Virus record (IMG/VR): IMGVR_UViG_3300031787_008284
DNA from: an uncultured virus (IMG/VR IMGVR_UViG_3300031787_008284)
Lineage: Duplodnaviria; Heunggongvirae; Uroviricota; Caudoviricetes
DNA: 64,000 nucleotides
Strand: one strand, 5' to 3'
The translations under genes were made by a program, and so were the position numbers. A model generated the notes under the pieces. The model was given only the letters and a program-made list of their open reading frames with translations. It was not told the origin of the DNA and searched no databases. Each line of letters starts with the position of its first letter. Position 1 is the stretch's first letter. This document shows, piece by piece, positions 15,446-22,037 of this stretch.

Positions 15446-17322
15446 TAGAAAAGAGATTTATTGCTTGTTTTAATTTCAACAGATTCGCCTAGAATCTTCT
15501 TTTTACGAGGGCTAGAGTCACCTGCAAACCAGATATTTAATGTACTGTTAAATCCATTATCTCTGGTAAGAAAGTATGATCTAGGGCTTCTAATGATCTC
15601 CTGATATTCATCGTCCTCCAATGCAGCCAATCCTTTCTTATATTCAATATTCCATGAGGATAATGATTTTTGTTTTAACTCCCATTCTTTATAATCTTCT
15701 TCAGAATAAAAGCTTAAAGTTTCCTTTCCTTTCTTTGCTACCATAAGAGGTGTTTCTACCTTAAGAACTTTACCTTCTTCAAATAACTCAGGCCAATATT
15801 TACCAAAGAAATTAATTAGCAATGCAGAAATTGAATTCCCATCAACATCGGCATCAGTATAGAATAAGATCTTACCATATCTTAAGTCCTTTGGTTCATG
15901 ACCAATCTTTAATCCTATTGCAGCCATAAGAGATTGTACTTCTTTATTTTGTACCACCTTTGAATCAGGAATCTCTCTTACATTAATAAATTTACCGCGA
16001 AGAGGAAACGCACCTTGCGTTAGCGGATCACGGTAACGACGAAACGCAGAGGATGCAGAGTCACCTTCAAATATTGCAAGAGTACAATTTTTTCTATCAC
16101 CGGTTTTCTTAGCATCGATTAATTTAATTACCTTTGACTTATCGAGGTTATTATTTAATTTTCTAAGTTTTGCTCTTTCTTCGGCTGCCTGCTTTCTTTC
16201 AATCCAGTCAAGAACAGATTGGATGATTTCAGATGCAAATACTTGTTTAAGAATCTTTTCTGATAGTTCATGTATACTCCCAAAGTCTTTAGGTTCAGTA
16301 ATGAGTTTCTCCTTAGTTTGAGACGAGAATGCAGGATTAATAACTGTGCAATCAATAAAGAGAAAGATGTGTTGTTTTAGATCGGTTGGTTTTACATCAA
16401 CCCGATATTTTTTCTTAATCTTTTCTCTAAGGTATTGGATGATTTGAAATGTAACATTATTAACATGGGTGCCACCATCCTTTGTTTCAACCGAATTGAC
16501 GAATGATATTGCTTTAAATCCTGATGTTGAATGTCCTATACCAATTTTCCAATTAGGAGACTGTTCATAGAAAACATTATCAGTATAAAGATCTGCATAT
16601 TCTTTAAAGTTCTTAAACGATATTAAGGTATCATTAAGATAGATCTTAAGCAAAGTATTACATGCAGCAATATCATAAAGCCTTTTCTGAATCATTTGCA
16701 GAGAAGACTTATCAATTTTCTTCATTCCAAATCTTTCAAAATCTGCAATATAAGAAATTTCAGTATAGCCTTTCTTATGTGATTTAATTACAGGTTCTGT
16801 CTTTTTGGACATGTTATCTGAAAATACCTGCACAAATGATTTTTTACCATCACATGTTTCAATTTTGAATTCTTTACTAAAGATATTGGTTAATGTACTA
16901 CCTACACCATTAGTACCTACAACAGTACGGTCTTCAGTATCATCAAAATTACTACCAGTCTTAAGATTACTAAAGATCATTTCTGGAACCCATTCTCCGT
17001 ACTCTTTATGGATCTCTACAGGAATTCCTCCATTATCCCAGATTGATATTCTGCCAGATACTTCATCAATAGTAATTTTAATCTGGTTAAGTTGAGGATT
17101 TCTTTTATGTTCATCAACTGAATTTGATACGATCTCGTCAAAAAGTTTTATGAAACCTGGATTATAAGTAATCTCCGTAGGTTCAAATTTACCTTTCTTT
17201 TCGTTAAGAAGAAATACTTCCTCGGTATGCGGTTTAATTGAACCGATGTACATACCTGGACGAAGGAGAACGTGTTCAGTGTCAGTAAGTTTTTGATACC
17301 TCTTTTCTACACTTACGGCCAT
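15445..17322 (-). CDS. DNA topoisomerase II, gp39+60-like (GyrB/ParE-type) subunit
   Basis: EHVLLRPGMYIG, EIVSNSVD, GTNGVG, EGDSA, PLRGK, DADVDG, YKKGLA. Confidence 0.95.
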   Translation of the reverse strand: MAVSVEKRYQKLTDTEHVLLRPGMYIGSIKPHTEEVFLLNEKKGKFEPTEITYNPGFIKLFDEIVSNSVDEHKRNPQLNQIKITIDEVSGRISIWDNGGIPVEIHKEYGEWVPEMIFSNLKTGSNFDDTEDRTVVGTNGVGSTLTNIFSKEFKIETCDGKKSFVQVFSDNMSKKTEPVIKSHKKGYTEISYIADFERFGMKKIDKSSLQMIQKRLYDIAACNTLLKIYLNDTLISFKNFKEYADLYTDNVFYEQSPNWKIGIGHSTSGFKAISFVNSVETKDGGTHVNNVTFQIIQYLREKIKKKYRVDVKPTDLKQHIFLFIDCTVINPAFSSQTKEKLITEPKDFGSIHELSEKILKQVFASEIIQSVLDWIERKQAAEERAKLRKLNNNLDKSKVIKLIDAKKTGDRKNCTLAIFEGDSASSAFRRYRDPLTQGAFPLRGKFINVREIPDSKVVQNKEVQSLMAAIGLKIGHEPKDLRYGKILFYTDADVDGNSISALLINFFGKYWPELFEEGKVLKVETPLMVAKKGKETLSFYSEEDYKEWELKQKSLSSWNIEYKKGLAALEDDEYQEIIRSPRSYFLTRDNGFNSTLNIWFAGDSSPRKKKILGESVEIKTSNKSLF

Positions 17323-17357
17323 ACCTTTTATTTTTATATGCTAAAACTCTGTTTGGT

Positions 17358-17555
17358 TTAATTATATTGATGTCTAAGTGTAAGTTTCAGAAAGGCTTTA
17401 TATGAATTATAGGCTTCCCTAAATCGTGGATCTTTTTCATTATGTTTCCATTTTGCTGAAAACAAATGAATAAGTTTAACCAAAGACTCGTAATGAACGG
17501 TCTTGTTGTCTTTGTTTAGGATAACCCTGCGTACCCAAATAAAATCCTTTTTCAT
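17358..17555 (-). CDS. Hypothetical protein
   Basis: 65-aa ORF behind a TTTCA-N17-TTATATTT motif. Confidence 0.6.
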   Translation of the reverse strand: MKKDFIWVRRVILNKDNKTVHYESLVKLIHLFSAKWKHNEKDPRFREAYNSYKAFLKLTLRHQYN

Positions 17556-17605
17556 ACCTAAACTATTTATTCAAATATAATACATAGATATGATTTCTGA
17601 AAGAG

Positions 17606-17690
17606 CGGAAGGTGAGGGGATCGAACCCTCGCGCCGTTGCCGACCTAACAGTTTAGCAAACTGCCCCCTTCACCACTTGGGTAACCTTCC
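17606..17690 (-). tRNA. tRNA-Ser(GCT)
   Basis: GGAAGGT acceptor, loop TT-GCT-AA, long variable arm, GGTTCGATCC. Confidence 0.92.
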
Positions 17691-17691
17691 T

Positions 17692-18141
17692 TTATCTACA
17701 GCAATAATCAGCTGCACGAGTTGCAATTTGCTCGTTAGGTTTTACATTTACTTTATAGCCCAGAGAATTTGCCCACCCTTTAGCCGCAGAAATAATTCTA
17801 TATGATTTGTGTTCTTCATCTCCGTTATAGTCCATATCAATTTGAACCTTAACATTAATCTGTTGTGTAAGCCATTCAGCGGTTTCAATACTCATCTCGG
17901 CTTCTTTCCAAAGACGTGTCCACATATCAGTGATCTTTGGCATTTTATGTTTAGTAAAAATATAATGTACACCTGATGATCCAAAGCGATATGCTATCAC
18001 TGTGCTATACATAGTTACATCACCATGATTTTGTGAATCGGTTCCAATGTGAATCGATGCATGAGGATAATTCTTTAACTGCTCGAGGGTGTGATCTATC
18101 ACATTAACCTTGACTCCATTTGTCTTTCTAAACACCTTCAT
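17692..18141 (-). CDS. RNase H-like YkuK (DUF458) family protein
   Basis: IHIGTDSQ, RLWKEAEMS, QIDMDYN, KP...ATRAAD. Confidence 0.85.
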   Translation of the reverse strand: MKVFRKTNGVKVNVIDHTLEQLKNYPHASIHIGTDSQNHGDVTMYSTVIAYRFGSSGVHYIFTKHKMPKITDMWTRLWKEAEMSIETAEWLTQQINVKVQIDMDYNGDEEHKSYRIISAAKGWANSLGYKVNVKPNEQIATRAADYCCR

Positions 18142-18158
18142 TCATTTTATGTATTTCG

Positions 18159-18231
18159 CACGCCTGGATGGGTTCGAACCACCGACACCTGGTTTTGGAG
18201 ACCAGTGCTCTACCAACTGAGCTACAGACGC
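18159..18231 (-). tRNA. tRNA-Trp(CCA)
   Basis: Cloverleaf, CTGGT-CTCCAAA-ACCAG. Confidence 0.92.
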
Positions 18232-18239
18232 ATTTATTG

Positions 18240-18310
18240 AGGCACCAACAGGAATCGAACCTGTGTGAAAGGTTTTGCAGACCTCCACCTAACCACTCGG
18301 CCATAGTGCC
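18240..18310 (-). tRNA. tRNA-Cys(GCA)
   Basis: Cloverleaf, loop CT-GCA-AA, U discriminator. Confidence 0.92.
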
Positions 18311-18316
18311 ATTATG

Positions 18317-18391
18317 GGTGATTAATGGGAGTCGAACCCACGACCTTCTGAACCACAATCAGATGCTCTAACCAACTGAGCTATAACCACC
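18317..18391 (-). tRNA. tRNA-His(GTG)
   Basis: Cloverleaf with encoded G-1 and C73, loop TT-GTG-GT. Confidence 0.92.
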
Positions 18392-18396
18392 ATGTG

Positions 18397-18470
18397 TTGG
18401 AATAGGCAGACTCGAACTGCCGACCCTTCGCGTATCAGACGAATGCTCTAACCAACTGAGCTATATTCCA
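18397..18470 (-). tRNA. tRNA-Ile(GAT)
   Basis: TGGAATA/TATTCCA acceptor, loop CT-GAT-AC. Confidence 0.9.
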
Positions 18471-18528
18471 ATGTCACAGGACCCGCACCCTGTTCTGAAC
18501 TTGTACTTTGTTCTATTAAGCGTTTTTG

Positions 18529-18600
18529 CTCCCCGGGGGAATTACGATATCCCGACCCCATGATTAACAGTCATGTGCTCTGCCTCTGAGCTACCGAGGA
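18529..18600 (-). tRNA. tRNA-Asn(GTT), non-canonical T-loop
   Basis: CATGA-CTGTTAA-TCATG; T arm GGGAT-ATCGTAA-TTCCC. Confidence 0.85.
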
Positions 18601-18683
18601 ATAAAAGTAATAAGCAGAGGCTTTGGGTTAGACACGCCCTAATATTACATAGGAGACCCCTTAGATGCTTACCTATTACTTAG

Positions 18684-18756
18684 TGGTGATGGACGGAATC
18701 GAACCGCCGACACAAGGATTTTCAGTCCTTTGCTCTACCAACTGAGCTACATCACC
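18684..18756 (-). tRNA. tRNA-Phe(GAA)
   Basis: Cloverleaf, AAGGA-CTGAAAA-TCCTT. Confidence 0.93.
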
Positions 18757-18761
18757 ATTAG

Positions 18762-18834
18762 TAGTCAATAAAGGACTCGAACCCTTATCTCTTGATCCGT
18801 AGTCAAGTGTTCTATCCAATTGAACTAATCGACT
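18762..18834 (-). tRNA. tRNA-Arg(ACG)
   Basis: CTTGA-CTACGGA-TCAAG. Confidence 0.9.
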
Positions 18835-18839
18835 AAATG

Positions 18840-18913
18840 TGGACCTTGCAGGGCTCGAACCTGCGACCTGCGGATTATGAGTCCGATGCTCTAACCAACT
18901 GAGCTAAAGGTCC
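18840..18913 (-). tRNA. tRNA with CAT anticodon, probably Ile2 (lysidine type)
   Basis: GGACCTT acceptor resembling bacterial tRNA-Ile2; loop CT-CAT-AA. Confidence 0.8.
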
Positions 18914-18918
18914 AAATG

Positions 18919-19001
18919 TTGGAAGGGACGGATTCGAACCGCCGTACTCCGAAGAGAGCAGATTTACAGTCTGCCGGTTTTAACCACTCACCCACCTTCC
19001 A
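18919..19001 (-). tRNA. tRNA-Tyr(GTA)
   Basis: GCAGA-CTGTAAA-TCTGC, long variable arm. Confidence 0.92.
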
Positions 19002-19123
19002 ATAAAAGAGAGACTTCGGGTCTTTCGGGCATTCTGTGATATAATCAACACATCTGAATCTCCTAATGCCTTTTTGACAGTCAGCGGGATTAAGACCATA
19101 TCATACAGCTTCACTATCTCTCT

Positions 19124-19198
19124 TGGTGCACCCTGATGGTTTCGAACCACCGACCCTCTGCATGTAAGGCAGATGCTCTCCCACTGAGCTAAGGGTGC
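19124..19198 (-). tRNA. tRNA-Val(TAC), CCA encoded
   Basis: TCTGC-CTTACAT-GCAGA. Confidence 0.92.
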
Positions 19199-19203
19199 AT
19201 TAG

Positions 19204-19284
19204 TACCGAAGAAGGGACTCGAACCCTTAAGCCGTTAGGCACTGGTTCCTAAGACCAGCGTGTATACCATTCCACCACTTCGGC
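19204..19284 (-). tRNA. tRNA-Leu(TAG)
   Basis: CTGGT-CTTAGGA-ACCAG, long variable arm. Confidence 0.92.
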
Positions 19285-19384
19285 AAGTTGTAGGATATCG
19301 CTTAACCTACTGTGATTGCGCCTTTCACATTTACATCTTATAGCTACATCCTAAACGGGAAAACTATGATGTACGATTTTTTTG

Positions 19385-19457
19385 TGATCCCGGCGCGGCT
19401 CGAACGCGCGGCCCATACATTAAAAGTGTATTGCTCTACCAACTGAGCTACGAGATC
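19385..19457 (-). tRNA. tRNA-Lys(TTT)
   Basis: ATACA-CTTTTAA-TGTAT. Confidence 0.92.
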
Positions 19458-19461
19458 TTAG

Positions 19462-19535
19462 TGGAGGTAGAGGGATTCGAACCCACGACCCTCTGCGTGC
19501 AAGGCAGATGCTCTAGCCAACTGAGCTATACCCCC
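19462..19535 (-). tRNA. tRNA-Ala(TGC)
   Basis: GGGGGTA/TACCTCC acceptor with G3:U70; loop CT-TGC-AC. Confidence 0.93.
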
Positions 19536-19607
19536 AAAGTGTAGGTAGCCTTCCTACTGTGTAACCGTACGTGTTACTTTAGGTTATGCATTAACCTCGG
19601 CATTTTT

Positions 19608-19684
19608 TGGCGGCCCGTACGGGACTCGAACCCGTGACCTTCGCCGTGACAGGGCGACATTGTAACCATCTCTACTAACGAGCC
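19608..19684 (-). tRNA. tRNA-Asp(GTC), CCA encoded
   Basis: TCGCC-CTGTCAC-GGCGA. Confidence 0.92.
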
Positions 19685-19791
19685 AATAAGAGGGTGGCGA
19701 AAGATTTGCGATCCTTCATTTCTACTTCTGAATATGCTGATTAAGTCGACTTCACAGCAGGAATTTCATTTTCGTCTAGATACCACCTTTG

Positions 19792-19866
19792 TTGCGGGGA
19801 TGGGAATCGAACCCATGTGGTTCGGCTTATGAGACCGAGCTGGAACCATCTCCAGTCCACCCCGCA
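19792..19866 (-). tRNA. tRNA-Met(CAT)
   Basis: TGCGGGG/CCCCGCA acceptor, loop CT-CAT-AA, atypical D arm. Confidence 0.82.
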
Positions 19867-19872
19867 ATGTTG

Positions 19873-19946
19873 TAGTCCGTACGGGGATCGAACCCGTAAG
19901 CTTCTCCGTGAAAGGGAGATGTCCTAACCAATTAGACGAACGGACC
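19873..19946 (-). tRNA. tRNA-Glu(TTC)
   Basis: TCTCC-CTTTCAC-GGAGA. Confidence 0.92.
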
Positions 19947-19958
19947 AAATAATGTTTG

Positions 19959-20031
19959 AGCCTCCGATAGGATTCGAACCTACGACCCACTGATTACAAA
20001 TCAGTAGCTCTACCAACTGAGCTACAGAGGC
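19959..20031 (-). tRNA. tRNA-Thr(TGT)
   Basis: ACTGA-TTTGTAA-TCAGT. Confidence 0.93.
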
Positions 20032-20037
20032 AAAATA

Positions 20038-20093
20038 CAGGATACGTTTTGGCTTCAAAGTTGCAGTTTGATAAAATTTGCTGTATGTATCCT
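20038..20093 (-). ncRNA. Armless tRNA-like small RNA, copy A
   Basis: AGGATAC/GTATCCT-G terminal stem, ATACAGCAA bulge, TCAAA-CTGCAAC-TTTGA hairpin. Confidence 0.6.
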
Positions 20094-20095
20094 TG

Positions 20096-20168
20096 TAGGG
20101 AAGACAGGGCTCGAACCTGCGACCCCCTGGTCCCAAACCAGGTGCGCTACCAACTGCGCTACTTCCCT
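20096..20168 (-). tRNA. tRNA-Pro(TGG)
   Basis: CCTGG-TTTGGGA-CCAGG. Confidence 0.92.
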
Positions 20169-20173
20169 ATATG

Positions 20174-20244
20174 TTGCCCCCAAAGGATTCGAACCTCTAC
20201 ACTGTGGACCAAAACCACATGTCCTGCCATTAGACGAGAGGGCA
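20174..20244 (-). tRNA. tRNA-Gln(TTG)
   Basis: TGTGG-TTTTGGT-CCACA. Confidence 0.9.
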
Positions 20245-20252
20245 ATTTAAAG

Positions 20253-20338
20253 CGGAAAGAGAGGGATTCGAACCCCCGATACCTCGCGGTATGCCGGTTT
20301 TCAAGACCGGTGTAATCAACCAACTCTACCATCTTTCC
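20253..20338 (-). tRNA. tRNA-Ser(TGA)
   Basis: CCGGT-CTTGAAA-ACCGG, long variable arm. Confidence 0.92.
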
Positions 20339-20348
20339 GTTGGTACCT

Positions 20349-20365
20349 CAATATGTCAAAGAACG
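20349..20365 (-). promoter_or_regulatory. boxA-like antitermination site at the head of the tRNA array
   Basis: CGTTCTTTGACATATTG; near-identical copy upstream of tmRNA. Confidence 0.7.
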
Positions 20366-20426
20366 AATTTGAAATTCTATTCTAAACAAATATAACTCAT
20401 TCAATCTTTTTCTGAAAGAGACCCAT

Positions 20427-20463
20427 AAAAAAAGCCTCCCGGAATTTTTTATCCAGGAGGCTT
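20427..20463 (-). terminator. Intrinsic terminator (putative attenuator) upstream of the tRNA array
   Basis: AAGCCTCCTGGA/TCCGGGAGGCTT stem with T-run. Confidence 0.85.
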
Positions 20464-20486
20464 AGTATTATAAGTGTTTTATCTTA

Positions 20487-20582
20487 TCAGCTCCTGCCTG
20501 GACTTGGTGTAATTGAATCCGCCTGCGGAAAATTCTTTTCCACATTACTAAGAATCCAATATGTACATCCGTGCAGTTGCAT
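20487..20582 (-). CDS. Putative attenuator leader peptide, 31 aa, containing all 20 amino acids (not in ORF track)
   Basis: MQLHGCTYWILSNVEKNFPQADSITPSPGRS, then TGA TAA; 3' end TCCAGGCAGG is complementary to the terminator 5' arm. Confidence 0.75.
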   Translation of the reverse strand: MQLHGCTYWILSNVEKNFPQADSITPSPGRS

Positions 20583-20600
20583 TGAAATTGTTTTATTTGT

Positions 20601-20612
20601 TATTTATATATA
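20601..20612 (-). promoter_or_regulatory. Late-type promoter upstream of the leader ORF
   Basis: TATATATAAATA contains the T4 late consensus TATAAATA, 18 nt before the ATG. Confidence 0.65.
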
Positions 20613-20648
20613 CTCACATTGTGTTTGTTTCACATGTGTGAGAATTTG

Positions 20649-20721
<73 letters not shown>

Positions 20722-20726
20722 AGAAA

Positions 20727-20782
20727 CAGGATGCATTGGGTTGTAGTTTACAAGTCTAGTCCAAAGTTGCTGTATGCATCCT
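20727..20782 (-). ncRNA. Armless tRNA-like small RNA, copy B
   Basis: AGGATGC/GCATCCT-G terminal stem, ATACAGCAA bulge, loop CTTGTAA; 56 nt like copy A. Confidence 0.6.
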
Positions 20783-20785
20783 TTT

Positions 20786-21167
20786 TGGTGGAGGTGATGG
20801 GATTCGAACCCATGTCCGACTAAGGAACCTAAATCCCTCATTCACAAGCTTAGGCCATTTTTCTTAATGGCCAAAATAAATGGTTCCTATTTTGACATCG
20901 TTACCAATAACTATGTCGAGTTCACTTATAAGGTAGTACTCTGAACGAGACCTTGAATTCTCATTCTTTTTAATATCTCACGATGAGTGCGAGACTGATT
21001 AGGCTGCTACAGCGTAATCAGCACCAATGAAAGCCATTGCGTCTTCCCAGGTGAATGAAGATTTCTCTTCGCCTTTTATTGTGCGATAGGTGTTTAAGGG
21101 TTTCCATCTAACCCTGCTTGCATCAGTAACCTAATTTCAGCTTAATCGTCAAAACCTGGTCACCCCC
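20786..21167 (-). ncRNA. ssrA: tmRNA
   Basis: 5' GGGGGTGACCAGGTTTTGAC, 3' GGTTCGAATCCCATCACCTCCACCA; tag ORF 21073..20999 GEEKSSFTWEDAMAFIGADYAVAA-stop. Confidence 0.93.
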
Positions 21168-21183
21168 AATATGTTAAAGAACG
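21168..21183 (-). promoter_or_regulatory. boxA-like site directly upstream of tmRNA
   Basis: CGTTCTTTAACATATT, preceded by TATAAATA at 21190..21197. Confidence 0.7.
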
Positions 21184-21206
21184 TACCTTTATTTATATAA
21201 TCGCGG

Positions 21207-21509
21207 TTAACGATTGTTTACTGGAGCTCTCCAAGATTCCATTTGTTCGCGGCGATTCTTTTGAATCATATCCCATTCCATACGATCATATAGAACATAG
21301 GAATACTTCCACCCACAGTCATCATCATAGTCAGAATCTTCTTCTACCACAATAGAATGACCAAGGATTTCTTGAAGAGTTTTCCAATCTGTTGGTCTCC
21401 AATACCCAAAGCGAAGGTAATTATGATTACCGCCACCAAAGATACGGCATACCTCGAATTGCCCTAAGGCATTTTCAATCTGTTTGAGTTTTTCAATTTC
21501 TATTTTCAT
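21207..21509 (-). CDS. Hypothetical protein
   Basis: 100-aa ORF in operon context. Confidence 0.65.
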   Translation of the reverse strand: MKIEIEKLKQIENALGQFEVCRIFGGGNHNYLRFGYWRPTDWKTLQEILGHSIVVEEDSDYDDDCGWKYSYVLYDRMEWDMIQKNRREQMESWRAPVNNR

Positions 21510-21733
21510 CTTTCTAAAATTACAAAGTTACCAAATTCGCGATCAAATACTTGAAGGAGATGTTCATAATCACCACTCATCATTTCAGTGGTAAGTTCTC
21601 CGCGCCTATTCGGTTGATACCCTAATTGCTTTGCTAAGTTTTGTGCAAGACCAATTAGTGCGAATGCATTTCCATCAGGGCCTGTAAGATCAATTACTAT
21701 AGGGCCAGTTCTTTCGTGTTTTTCTCGTATCAT
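21506..21733 (-). CDS. Conserved phage hypothetical protein
   Basis: Probable start MIREK; IDLTGPDGNAFALIG...MMSGDYEHLLQVFDREFG. Confidence 0.75.
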   Translation of the reverse strand: MIREKHERTGPIVIDLTGPDGNAFALIGLAQNLAKQLGYQPNRRGELTTEMMSGDYEHLLQVFDREFGNFVILER

Positions 21734-21734
21734 A

Positions 21735-21941
21735 TTACATGCATTGATAAGTTTCAGACTTAGACCAGTATTCATAGAATGCGGCAGCAGATTCTGTAAC
21801 TTCAGTAAGCTTAATACTTTTGAAGTAGACTCGGTTTCCAAAGACAGACTTTAGATTGACCGTATTCTTTGTGCAGTTTGATACCCGGTAGAATCCACCT
21901 TGGTATGTTACGATTGATCCTTTGTTAATTTGATTTTCCAT
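21735..21941 (-). CDS. Hypothetical protein
   Basis: 68-aa ORF behind a TTTCA-N17-TTATATTT motif. Confidence 0.65.
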   Translation of the reverse strand: MENQINKGSIVTYQGGFYRVSNCTKNTVNLKSVFGNRVYFKSIKLTEVTESAAAFYEYWSKSETYQCM

Positions 21942-22037
21942 ATCCGTTTAATTTTATATAAATATAAAACAAATTTTTGGGATTTGAAAATATTTGGGAG
22001 ACTTTTTTCTCTCCAGATGAAAAAAGTTATTAACAAT

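Follow-up and report, generated by a model that had tools for sequence, protein, structure and literature searches.

Why would a phage place a short open reading frame (ORF) that uses all 20 amino acids, followed by an intrinsic terminator, ahead of a long array of transfer RNA (tRNA) genes? The question is raised by a stretch of 64,000 nucleotides (nt), here called the window, which is part of the 139,776-base virus record IMGVR_UViG_3300031787_008284 of IMG/VR (completeness rating 45%), from an uncultured virus of the Caudoviricetes. The nearest relatives of the large subunit of topoisomerase II encoded in this record are found in uncultured huge phages, at 57% identity. Our analysis suggests, with a probability of roughly 75%, that the element is a ribosome-mediated (leader-peptide) transcription attenuator that gates the tRNA array of the phage. 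An initial annotation of the locus, made from the sequence alone, had at its core the same proposal: a translated leader, an anti-terminator at its 3' end, and tRNA transcription when a ribosome stalls. The proposal draws support from a family of similar leaders in unrelated phages, from pairing that is specific to each element, from a match between leader and array that appears only in the frame of the ORF, and from the many related units that leave no room for a promoter behind the terminator.

The leader locus

The elements of the locus all lie on the minus strand, and are as follows.

21167..20786, minus: transfer-messenger RNA (tmRNA), 110 bits to the Rfam tmRNA model
20721..20648, minus: tRNA-Gly(gcc), 5' of the leader and outside the putatively gated array
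20642..20613, minus: conserved hairpin after tRNA-Gly, followed by an A+T-rich promoter-like stretch
20601..20612, minus: promoter-like motif of the structural-gene class, 28 nt 5' of the leader ATG
20582..20487, minus: leader ORF, 31 codons plus stop, all 20 amino acids; a second in-frame stop follows
20567..20580, minus: segment 1, codons 1-6, forming the 5' side of the long hairpin, predicted partner of segment 2 when no ribosome is present
20490..20503, minus: segment 2, candidate anti-terminator strand, the last five codons up to the stop, predicted to pair with the terminator 5' arm
20463..20425, minus: intrinsic terminator (5' arm 20463-20452, 8-nt loop, 3' arm 20443-20432, T-run)
20417..20389, minus: second promoter-like site, sigma-70-like, match score 9/12
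20364..20355, minus: boxA-like motif heading the tRNA array (annotated stretch 20364..20349)
20338..17605, minus: 21 tRNA genes for 19 amino acids, with one 149-residue ORF among them

The terminator stem has 12 pairs, 7 of them G-C, plus the T-run, and an energy of -22.4 kcal/mol. The initial annotation had described this layout (ORF, terminator, second promoter, boxA and 21 tRNAs on the minus strand), and every element was recovered at its place. Its "all-20-amino-acid tRNA array" has to be amended: the 21 downstream tRNAs serve 19 amino acids, and Gly is the one served from 5' of the leader. Its late-promoter 8-mer is not enriched either (12 found, 11.4 expected) and was replaced by a longer, overlapping and strand-specific motif. 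An 8-mer that overlaps the original one occurs 16 times on the minus strand of the window, which is the gene strand, and not once on the plus strand. This 8-mer sits 19-36 nt 5' of the ATGs of long ORFs, including those of the portal, the head maturation protease and the tail sheath, and the motif before the leader is conserved in relatives. The short ORF thus starts 28 nt past a strand-specific promoter motif and 5' of tRNA genes, as a leader peptide would. Shine-Dalgarno-like motifs precede just 4 of the 54 long ORFs of the phage, so that the missing one before the leader carries no meaning. In its start context the leader resembles the genuine genes of this phage.

The second promoter that had been proposed past the terminator is present and is conserved in four variant groups. 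There are 2 matches to this type of site in the window, where 0.21 are expected. The other copy (17574-17602, minus) stands right after the last tRNA, before a 65-residue ORF (17358-17555, minus) and the topoisomerase gene.

Amino acid content of the leader peptide

Translation of the ORF bears out the residue count given earlier: the peptide contains 20 distinct residues, 19 of them within the first 22. It is the sole ORF with 20 distinct residues among the 162 ATG-initiated ORFs of 25-40 residues in the window, where the next best has 18. The 31-residue windows of 43 long ORFs do not reach 20 in any of 15,311 cases (maximum 19). Under models of independent and identically distributed residues, the probability is 1.3e-4 to 3.2e-4 for all 20 residues and 6e-6 to 2e-5 for at least 19 distinct residues in the first 22. 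Across 1.16 Mb from 77 related loci, which hold 2,743 small ORFs, 20 distinct residues are found only in the 10 copies of the leader. Such an ORF could arise by chance somewhere in a scan of many windows; for this reason the question is decided here by comparison instead.

The codons of the leader agree with the tRNAs of the phage: 28 of the 31 are cognate to the phage's own tRNAs, compared to 21.7 expected (P 0.0014), a degree of cognacy that about 2% of the 31-codon windows in real genes equal. All 19 amino acids of its array are present in the leader.

A family of leaders in other phages

To place the element in a wider context, we scanned viral contigs for similar arrangements; the family tests below were carried out on phages outside the clade of the window. 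A scan for the boxA-like motif gave at least 115 loci, in which the motif often lies just 5' of tRNA genes. Among the matches listed, 20 have a terminator within 200 nt 5' of boxA, and 14 of these were used as leader elements; in these 14, the terminator is closely preceded by the end of a short ATG-initiated ORF. When T-runs that directly adjoin boxA were sought in a second scan, 28 loci were obtained, and in 27 of them a short ORF ends 36-59 nt before the T-run. Downstream sequence of up to 6 kb was collected for 20 contigs, on which 25 units of leader and array were mapped, an array being taken to end wherever a further leader or terminator, or the locus boundary, was reached. One leader (L283), for which the terminator routine gave no hairpin, was taken from the T-run scan.

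Several candidates were set aside: L133 for want of an ORF; L162, L183 and L202, with an ORF of 50 residues and a terminator 185 nt from boxA; L230, whose ORF is cut by the end of the locus; L239, a duplicate of L180; and, from the T-run scan, L270, which has no ORF by the criteria used. The same T-run scan of bacterial genomes gave 9 matches, none of them near tRNAs, which look like chance or the starts of opposite-strand genes.

The units share a common layout that consists of a promoter-like box, an ORF of 22-49 codons, a spacer of 19-36 nt, a G+C-rich hairpin with a T-run, and then boxA or a tRNA. The promoter-like box lies 20-30 nt 5' of the ATG, judged by eye against the host consensus. 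An intrinsic terminator stands between leader and tRNA genes in the window and in all relatives. The distance from the T-run to the first tRNA is 30 nt or less in 13 of 24 units, which leaves no room for a promoter, so that these tRNAs could be reached only through the terminator; the remaining units, like the window, have a second promoter-like box between terminator and tRNAs. Five contigs (L285, L288, L289, L297 and L298) each carry two serial units of leader and terminator, each with its own tRNA block, and the amino acid sets of the two units are largely complementary. The search for related phages with a short ORF and terminator before tRNA arrays, suggested in the initial annotation, therefore yields a family of 25 units in 20 other contigs. 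As judged from these predicted elements, the same layout occurs in many unrelated uncultured phages. The leader regions of two relatives, compared by blastn to GenBank phage records, gave no match.

Two further observations were made on these contigs. Positions 1-194 of L290 match the 3' part of the GOLLD RNA (124 bits, expect value (E) 1.8e-32, cut at the start of the locus), ending about 100 nt before a leader ORF and tRNA block. At L291:3508, within the phage tRNA array, ARAGORN reports a tRNA with a CUA anticodon (labelled Pyl, of the amber-reading type).

Leaders contain the amino acids of their own arrays

If these leaders sense the tRNAs behind them, their amino acids should be those of the array. 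Of the 225 amino acids for which the arrays of the 25 units carry tRNAs, 218 are found in the leader of the same unit, and no amino acid is missed in 21 units; in the window the figure is 19 of 19. The regulatory codons therefore correspond to the controlled product in the window and in the family. For statistics we used 15 representatives, one unit per leader cluster. These have 7 misses among 152 amino acids, compared to 33.7 +/- 4.7 when arrays are permuted (minimum 15; 0 of 200,000 permutations as good). Concordance of presence and absence reaches 203 of 285, as opposed to 149.7 +/- 9.4 with permuted arrays. A first pass with shorter flanks gave 1 miss in 67, against 14.5 +/- 3.4.

The five contigs with two units provide a control within the same genome: native pairs have 0 misses, and swapped pairs have 34 of 76. 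In such contigs a leader that lacks Asp, Glu and Gly precedes a block without those tRNAs, and the second leader and its block have them. The match is also confined to the reading frame, since the other five frames give 34-49 misses of 152 as opposed to 7 in the frame of the ORF. At the codon level, a strictly cognate leader codon exists for 153 of 172 tRNAs, compared to 144.2 +/- 3.0 after synonymous shuffling (0 of 2,000 shuffles as good). Where an array carries only one codon box of a split family, leader codons fall in the matching box 8 to 0 for Arg, 15 to 6 for Leu and 5 to 6 for Ser. Leader diversity is above expectation overall (Fisher P 0.0018 over 8 groups), 4 of the 8 groups being individually below 0.05, and amino acid diversity as a trait of this predicted family is moderately supported.

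These results also bear on what a leader attenuator would sense. It could report translation in general, through ribosome availability or the coupling of ribosome and polymerase, and not particular tRNAs, in which case the all-20 content would be a by-product. The window leader has no single-codon runs and most amino acids are present once or twice, which would make it weakly sensitive to any single tRNA; moreover, many amino acids in the 15 representative leaders lack a matching tRNA in the array (75 leader-only as opposed to 145 shared). On the other hand, leader sets follow array sets far better than permuted pairs do, absences included (Asp, Glu and Gly within the same contigs), and the match reaches the choice among synonymous codons. 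We consider a sensor of translation in general unlikely, and prefer a leader attenuator tuned to the tRNAs of its own block.

Pairing between leader and terminator

The alternative RNA structures required for attenuation were assessed by folding. The 228 nt from tRNA-Gly to the T-run fold at -69.5 kcal/mol (z-score -7.1). Within them the ORF forms one long predicted hairpin (-31.4 kcal/mol, z-score -3.49), which none of 200 shuffles equals, and in whose outer helix the first six codons meet the last five. The minimum-energy fold and the consensus fold of the window clade both place 20580-20567 opposite 20503-20490, as the 1:2 pairing of an attenuator would. The most distant variant of the clade (L091) forms the same hairpin topology from a different helix.

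The initial annotation had predicted that the 3' end of the ORF pairs instead with the 5' arm of the terminator, and had proposed folding with and without a masking ribosome as a check. This pairing exists, at -13.7 kcal/mol compared to -22.4 kcal/mol for the terminator. In predicted folds of the nascent RNA, a 30-nt ribosome mask placed at codons 2-22 leads to the anti-terminator, and a mask at codon 24 or beyond gives none. The pairing is specific to the element: segment 2 of the window binds its own arm at -14.1 kcal/mol, as opposed to a mean of -4.6 kcal/mol with 24 foreign arms, none of which is as good.

In the family, the partner of the terminator 5' arm lies near the leader stop; counted from the first base of the stop codon, its end falls anywhere from 13 nt upstream to 12 nt downstream. 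Compared to shuffles, the anti-terminator is significant (P<0.05) in 8 of the 14 elements from the boxA matches listed. Summed over elements, pairing with the own arm amounts to -259.2 kcal/mol, compared to -161.0 +/- 11.1 kcal/mol with swapped arms (0 of 20,000 permutations as good). Masked folds, own-arm pairing and the swap test in the family thus all indicate an anti-terminator, the shuffle test being borderline in the window. Contigs from RNA libraries (four runs, low depth) cover the leader and some bridge the terminator; as they resolve neither transcript ends nor strand and allow for DNA carry-over, they are not taken as a sign of read-through.

No T-box was matched, either at E<=1 in positions 17000-22000 of the window or at E<=0.1 in six related loci, and searches of the window and of six relatives matched the leader to no Rfam family.

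Taken alone, the window leader might simply encode a 31-residue protein, as a small gene complete with promoter and terminator that neighbours the array by chance, transcription of the array then starting solely at the second promoter. In favour of this are the promoter motif ahead of the ORF, the typical start context, the strong terminator and the conservation of the ORF, as well as the conserved promoter-like site and boxA that follow the terminator. What such a gene leaves unexplained is that the 3' end of every leader fits the terminator arm of the same element, that leader composition follows the tRNA set in 25 units, and that 13 of 24 relatives have no room for a promoter past the terminator; nor does the protein match any family among 1.84 billion representatives. 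We give this explanation a slim chance, and the attenuator remains the preferred reading.

Conservation of the leader within its clade

Conservation was followed in a clade survey of 77 loci anchored on the topoisomerase gene. The layout with 22 tRNAs is present in 10 of the 77, and all 10 have the ORF, while the other 67 have neither; since the 10 loci form a single clade, the co-occurrence of ORF and layout counts as one event. Seven distinct DNA variants of the leader are known, all with 31 codons and 20 distinct residues, in line with the earlier expectation that relatives should retain the ORF and its residue diversity. The closest variants (L089 and L087) differ from the window only by synonymous third-position changes (3 and 2, respectively), another (L109) by a synonymous GGC-to-GGT change, and the leader stop codon survives a change from TGA to TAA. 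L091, the most distant of the variants, carries 17 base changes, which alter 5 codons synonymously and 8 non-synonymously; two residues that occurred only once were lost in it, and both reappear at other positions. Segment 2 is invariant in relatives apart from one change at a bulged base, and in the terminator one base pair has changed in a compensatory manner, while several further changes affect one side only.

When 1.84 billion representative proteins were searched with a profile, the matches were the clade, a 31-residue homologue (P0004), a 99-residue fusion-like protein (P0002) and chance matches to repeat proteins, and no protein family matched the leader in this search. P0004 has about 50% identity and 19 distinct residues; given its 14 differences from L091, the chance of keeping at least 19 distinct residues is 5-9%. 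In P0002, encoded on a 954-base contig, a near copy of the leader continues, in frame, a stretch of about 60 unrelated residues, and a stop within the promoter motif of the window is read as a residue; this may be a rearranged or chimeric contig.

Other searches stayed within the clade. An nhmmer search against 78 loci found no relative of the leader outside it. Scans of viral contigs with DNA and peptide patterns gave the same 13 loci and no deeper relatives, and a scan of metagenome contigs gave 7 copies of the leader, again with no deeper relatives; a further match from the metagenome scan (L112) was a chance one. No copy of the leader was found in a scan of genome contigs, and blastn of the window region against GenBank phage records matched tRNA genes only.

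This pattern of change speaks to whether the RNA itself, and not its translation, is the product. The element could be a small RNA that is not translated, or the tmRNA/tRNA-Gly unit could extend into it as a structured 3' trailer that ends in the terminator; in either case the ORF would be a chance frame. Such an RNA would account for the strong fold (228 nt at -69.5 kcal/mol, z-score -7.1) and for an ORF that spans exactly one long hairpin, and the helix replacement in L091 suggests selection on structure. It would not account for a frame that is open, and of unchanged length, in P0004 and in every variant, for synonymous changes among close variants, or for the tRNA match of the family, which is seen only in the frame of the ORF (7 as opposed to 34-49 misses of 152); an Rfam family match is also lacking. 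We judge this explanation very improbable, and again favour a translated leader acting as an attenuator.

Points that weigh against the attenuator

Several observations weigh against an attenuator, or against its sensing of single tRNAs. The pairing in the window is borderline when compared to dinucleotide shuffles (-14.1 against -10.2 +/- 2.1 kcal/mol), 5.45% of 2,000 shuffles reaching -14.1. Both pairing strands are invariant in the clade, which thus offers no covariation. Among the 14 elements from the boxA matches listed, 5 have no significant partner for the terminator arm, and for one leader cluster the own arm offers no advantage over foreign ones in pairing.

Selection on the peptide is not plain within the clade, where the 8 non-synonymous and 5 synonymous codon changes to L091 do not make for a low ratio of non-synonymous to synonymous change (dN/dS). 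Random substitution at the changed positions of L091 keeps all 20 residues in 8.6-15% of trials, and P0004 has no Cys. The agreement of leader and array has gaps as well. Of the 225 array amino acids, 7 have no counterpart in their leader: L281 accounts for three, L290 for two, and L291 and L299 for one apiece. In the window, the single Arg codon of the leader is not read by the tRNA-Arg(acg) of the array, one of the two Gly codons is not read by the tRNA-Gly of the phage, and this tRNA-Gly itself lies outside the array.

Finally, a conserved promoter-like site and boxA lie between terminator and array in the window. The array therefore need not depend on read-through, and the switch would at most add to basal expression.

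Other features of the locus

A few features near the leader deserve mention in their own right. The hairpin at 20642-20613, directly 3' of tRNA-Gly, has no T-run; its stem bases have changed, yet the stem is kept in all four variant groups, and it may be a processing or pause site. The tmRNA (20786-21199 region, minus) encodes an unusually long tag of 24 residues, where the tags of relatives have 9-10. On its 5' side lies the same promoter motif as that of the leader, and then a near copy of the boxA-like motif at 21182-21173. Within the array, the 149-residue ORF (17692-18141, minus), between tRNA-Trp and the last tRNA-Ser, matches PHROG 11311 (E 8.8e-11), with function unassigned.

Proposed mechanism

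In the model that we propose, transcription would begin at the phage promoter motif, about 20 nt 5' of the leader ATG, and the 31-codon leader would be translated while RNA polymerase advances. A ribosome that reaches the stop would cover the last codons, which form the anti-terminator strand, so that the terminator hairpin would form and transcription would end. With no ribosome loaded, the 5' part of the ORF would pair with the anti-terminator strand, and termination would likewise follow. A ribosome that stalls earlier, for lack of any charged tRNA, would leave the anti-terminator free to pair with the terminator 5' arm, and polymerase would then pass boxA into the tRNA genes. As the leader has a codon for each amino acid of the array, a shortage of any single one could raise the whole set. 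The new tRNAs would close the feedback loop, and the second promoter past the terminator would give expression independent of the switch.

That the leader is translated in vivo, and in which direction and to what extent the switch would respond, we infer. For the direction, stalling leading to read-through, we rely on geometry: the last codons are part of the anti-terminator, and 19-36 nt lie between the stop and the start of the terminator arm, which places the arm outside the footprint of a terminating ribosome. A link to host defences that cleave tRNAs (anticodon nucleases) is possible.

The comparisons above support the window leader as an extreme member of a putative attenuator family that gates phage tRNA blocks. 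Its all-20 content would follow from two features together, namely that a leader holds the amino acids of its block and that the block is nearly complete here.

Relation to known attenuators

Leader-peptide attenuators control amino acid operons of enterobacteria, among them trpL, hisL, leuL and pheL and the multivalent thrL and ilvL. The principle of such transcription attenuation is set out in the abstract of PMC1183508. The phage element resembles these leaders in having a short, putatively translated leader past a promoter, alternative 1:2, 2:3 and 3:4 pairings with an intrinsic terminator, and regulatory codons that correspond to what the controlled genes supply; the thr and ilv leaders are precedents for sensing several amino acids. 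Unlike them, it would control tRNA genes and not enzymes, represents up to 20 amino acids, mostly by one codon each, in place of runs of one, has an anti-terminator that overlaps the last codons and the stop, and is followed by boxA past the terminator. The host bacterium of the phage, too, differs from enterobacteria in that it does not use Shine-Dalgarno sites.

The pheM leader before pheST is a leader-peptide attenuator of an aminoacyl-tRNA synthetase operon. As proposed here, stalling at amino acid codons raises a component of translation for that amino acid; pheM differs in sensing one amino acid, in its protein-coding target and in its cellular genome. T-box riboswitches sense tRNA charging and choose between terminator and anti-terminator before genes of translation supply, and share both of these with our model. 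They differ in that the uncharged tRNA itself is bound, by way of a specifier codon and the T-box sequence, and in that there is no ORF; no T-box model matches here.

Leader ORFs before erm and ABC-F genes act as antibiotic-responsive attenuators of resistance genes. This type of leader-ORF attenuation is treated in the abstract of PMC8274638. The likeness to our element is that a ribosome stalled on a short leader ORF of mixed composition remodels the RNA downstream; the difference is that drug-bound ribosomes stall at particular peptide motifs, and that resistance proteins are controlled, often at the level of translation. Antitermination by boxA and Nus factors acts in ribosomal RNA (rRNA) operons. 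There, as in the phage, a boxA-like motif heads an untranslated operon of stable RNAs; in the phage the candidate motif follows a putatively regulated terminator, and Nus factors may act on it.

In the full-text literature searched, whose coverage leaves out subscription journals, we found no published account of leader-peptide control of tRNA genes. To our knowledge, leader-peptide attenuation serves amino acid biosynthesis and a few synthetase genes, not tRNA genes. What appears to be new here is the tRNA-gene target, a leader composed like a census of codons, a stop codon inside the anti-terminator, and the boxA that follows.

Implications for phage tRNA arrays

We lean towards a broader proposal, in which many uncultured phages would gate each tRNA block with a "codon census" leader, containing at least one codon per tRNA and wired to a terminator/anti-terminator switch. 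Any shortage, whether from a mismatch to host codon usage or from a tRNA-cleaving defence, would turn on the whole set, and its products would turn it off again. The window would be the pan-amino-acid extreme of such leaders, and they would be the first attenuator known for tRNA genes.

Why phages carry tRNAs, and at what time these are expressed, is debated, the two views being compensation for codon usage and escape from host defences that target tRNAs. If the mechanism holds, phages would regulate their tRNA arrays by direct feedback from the speed of decoding, and the debate would become testable. The rule that the amino acid set of the leader equals the tRNA set of the array would be a simple prediction, which could be checked in any new phage genome, and the elements themselves would be compact, modular sensors of single or multiple tRNA shortage that could be used as reporters.

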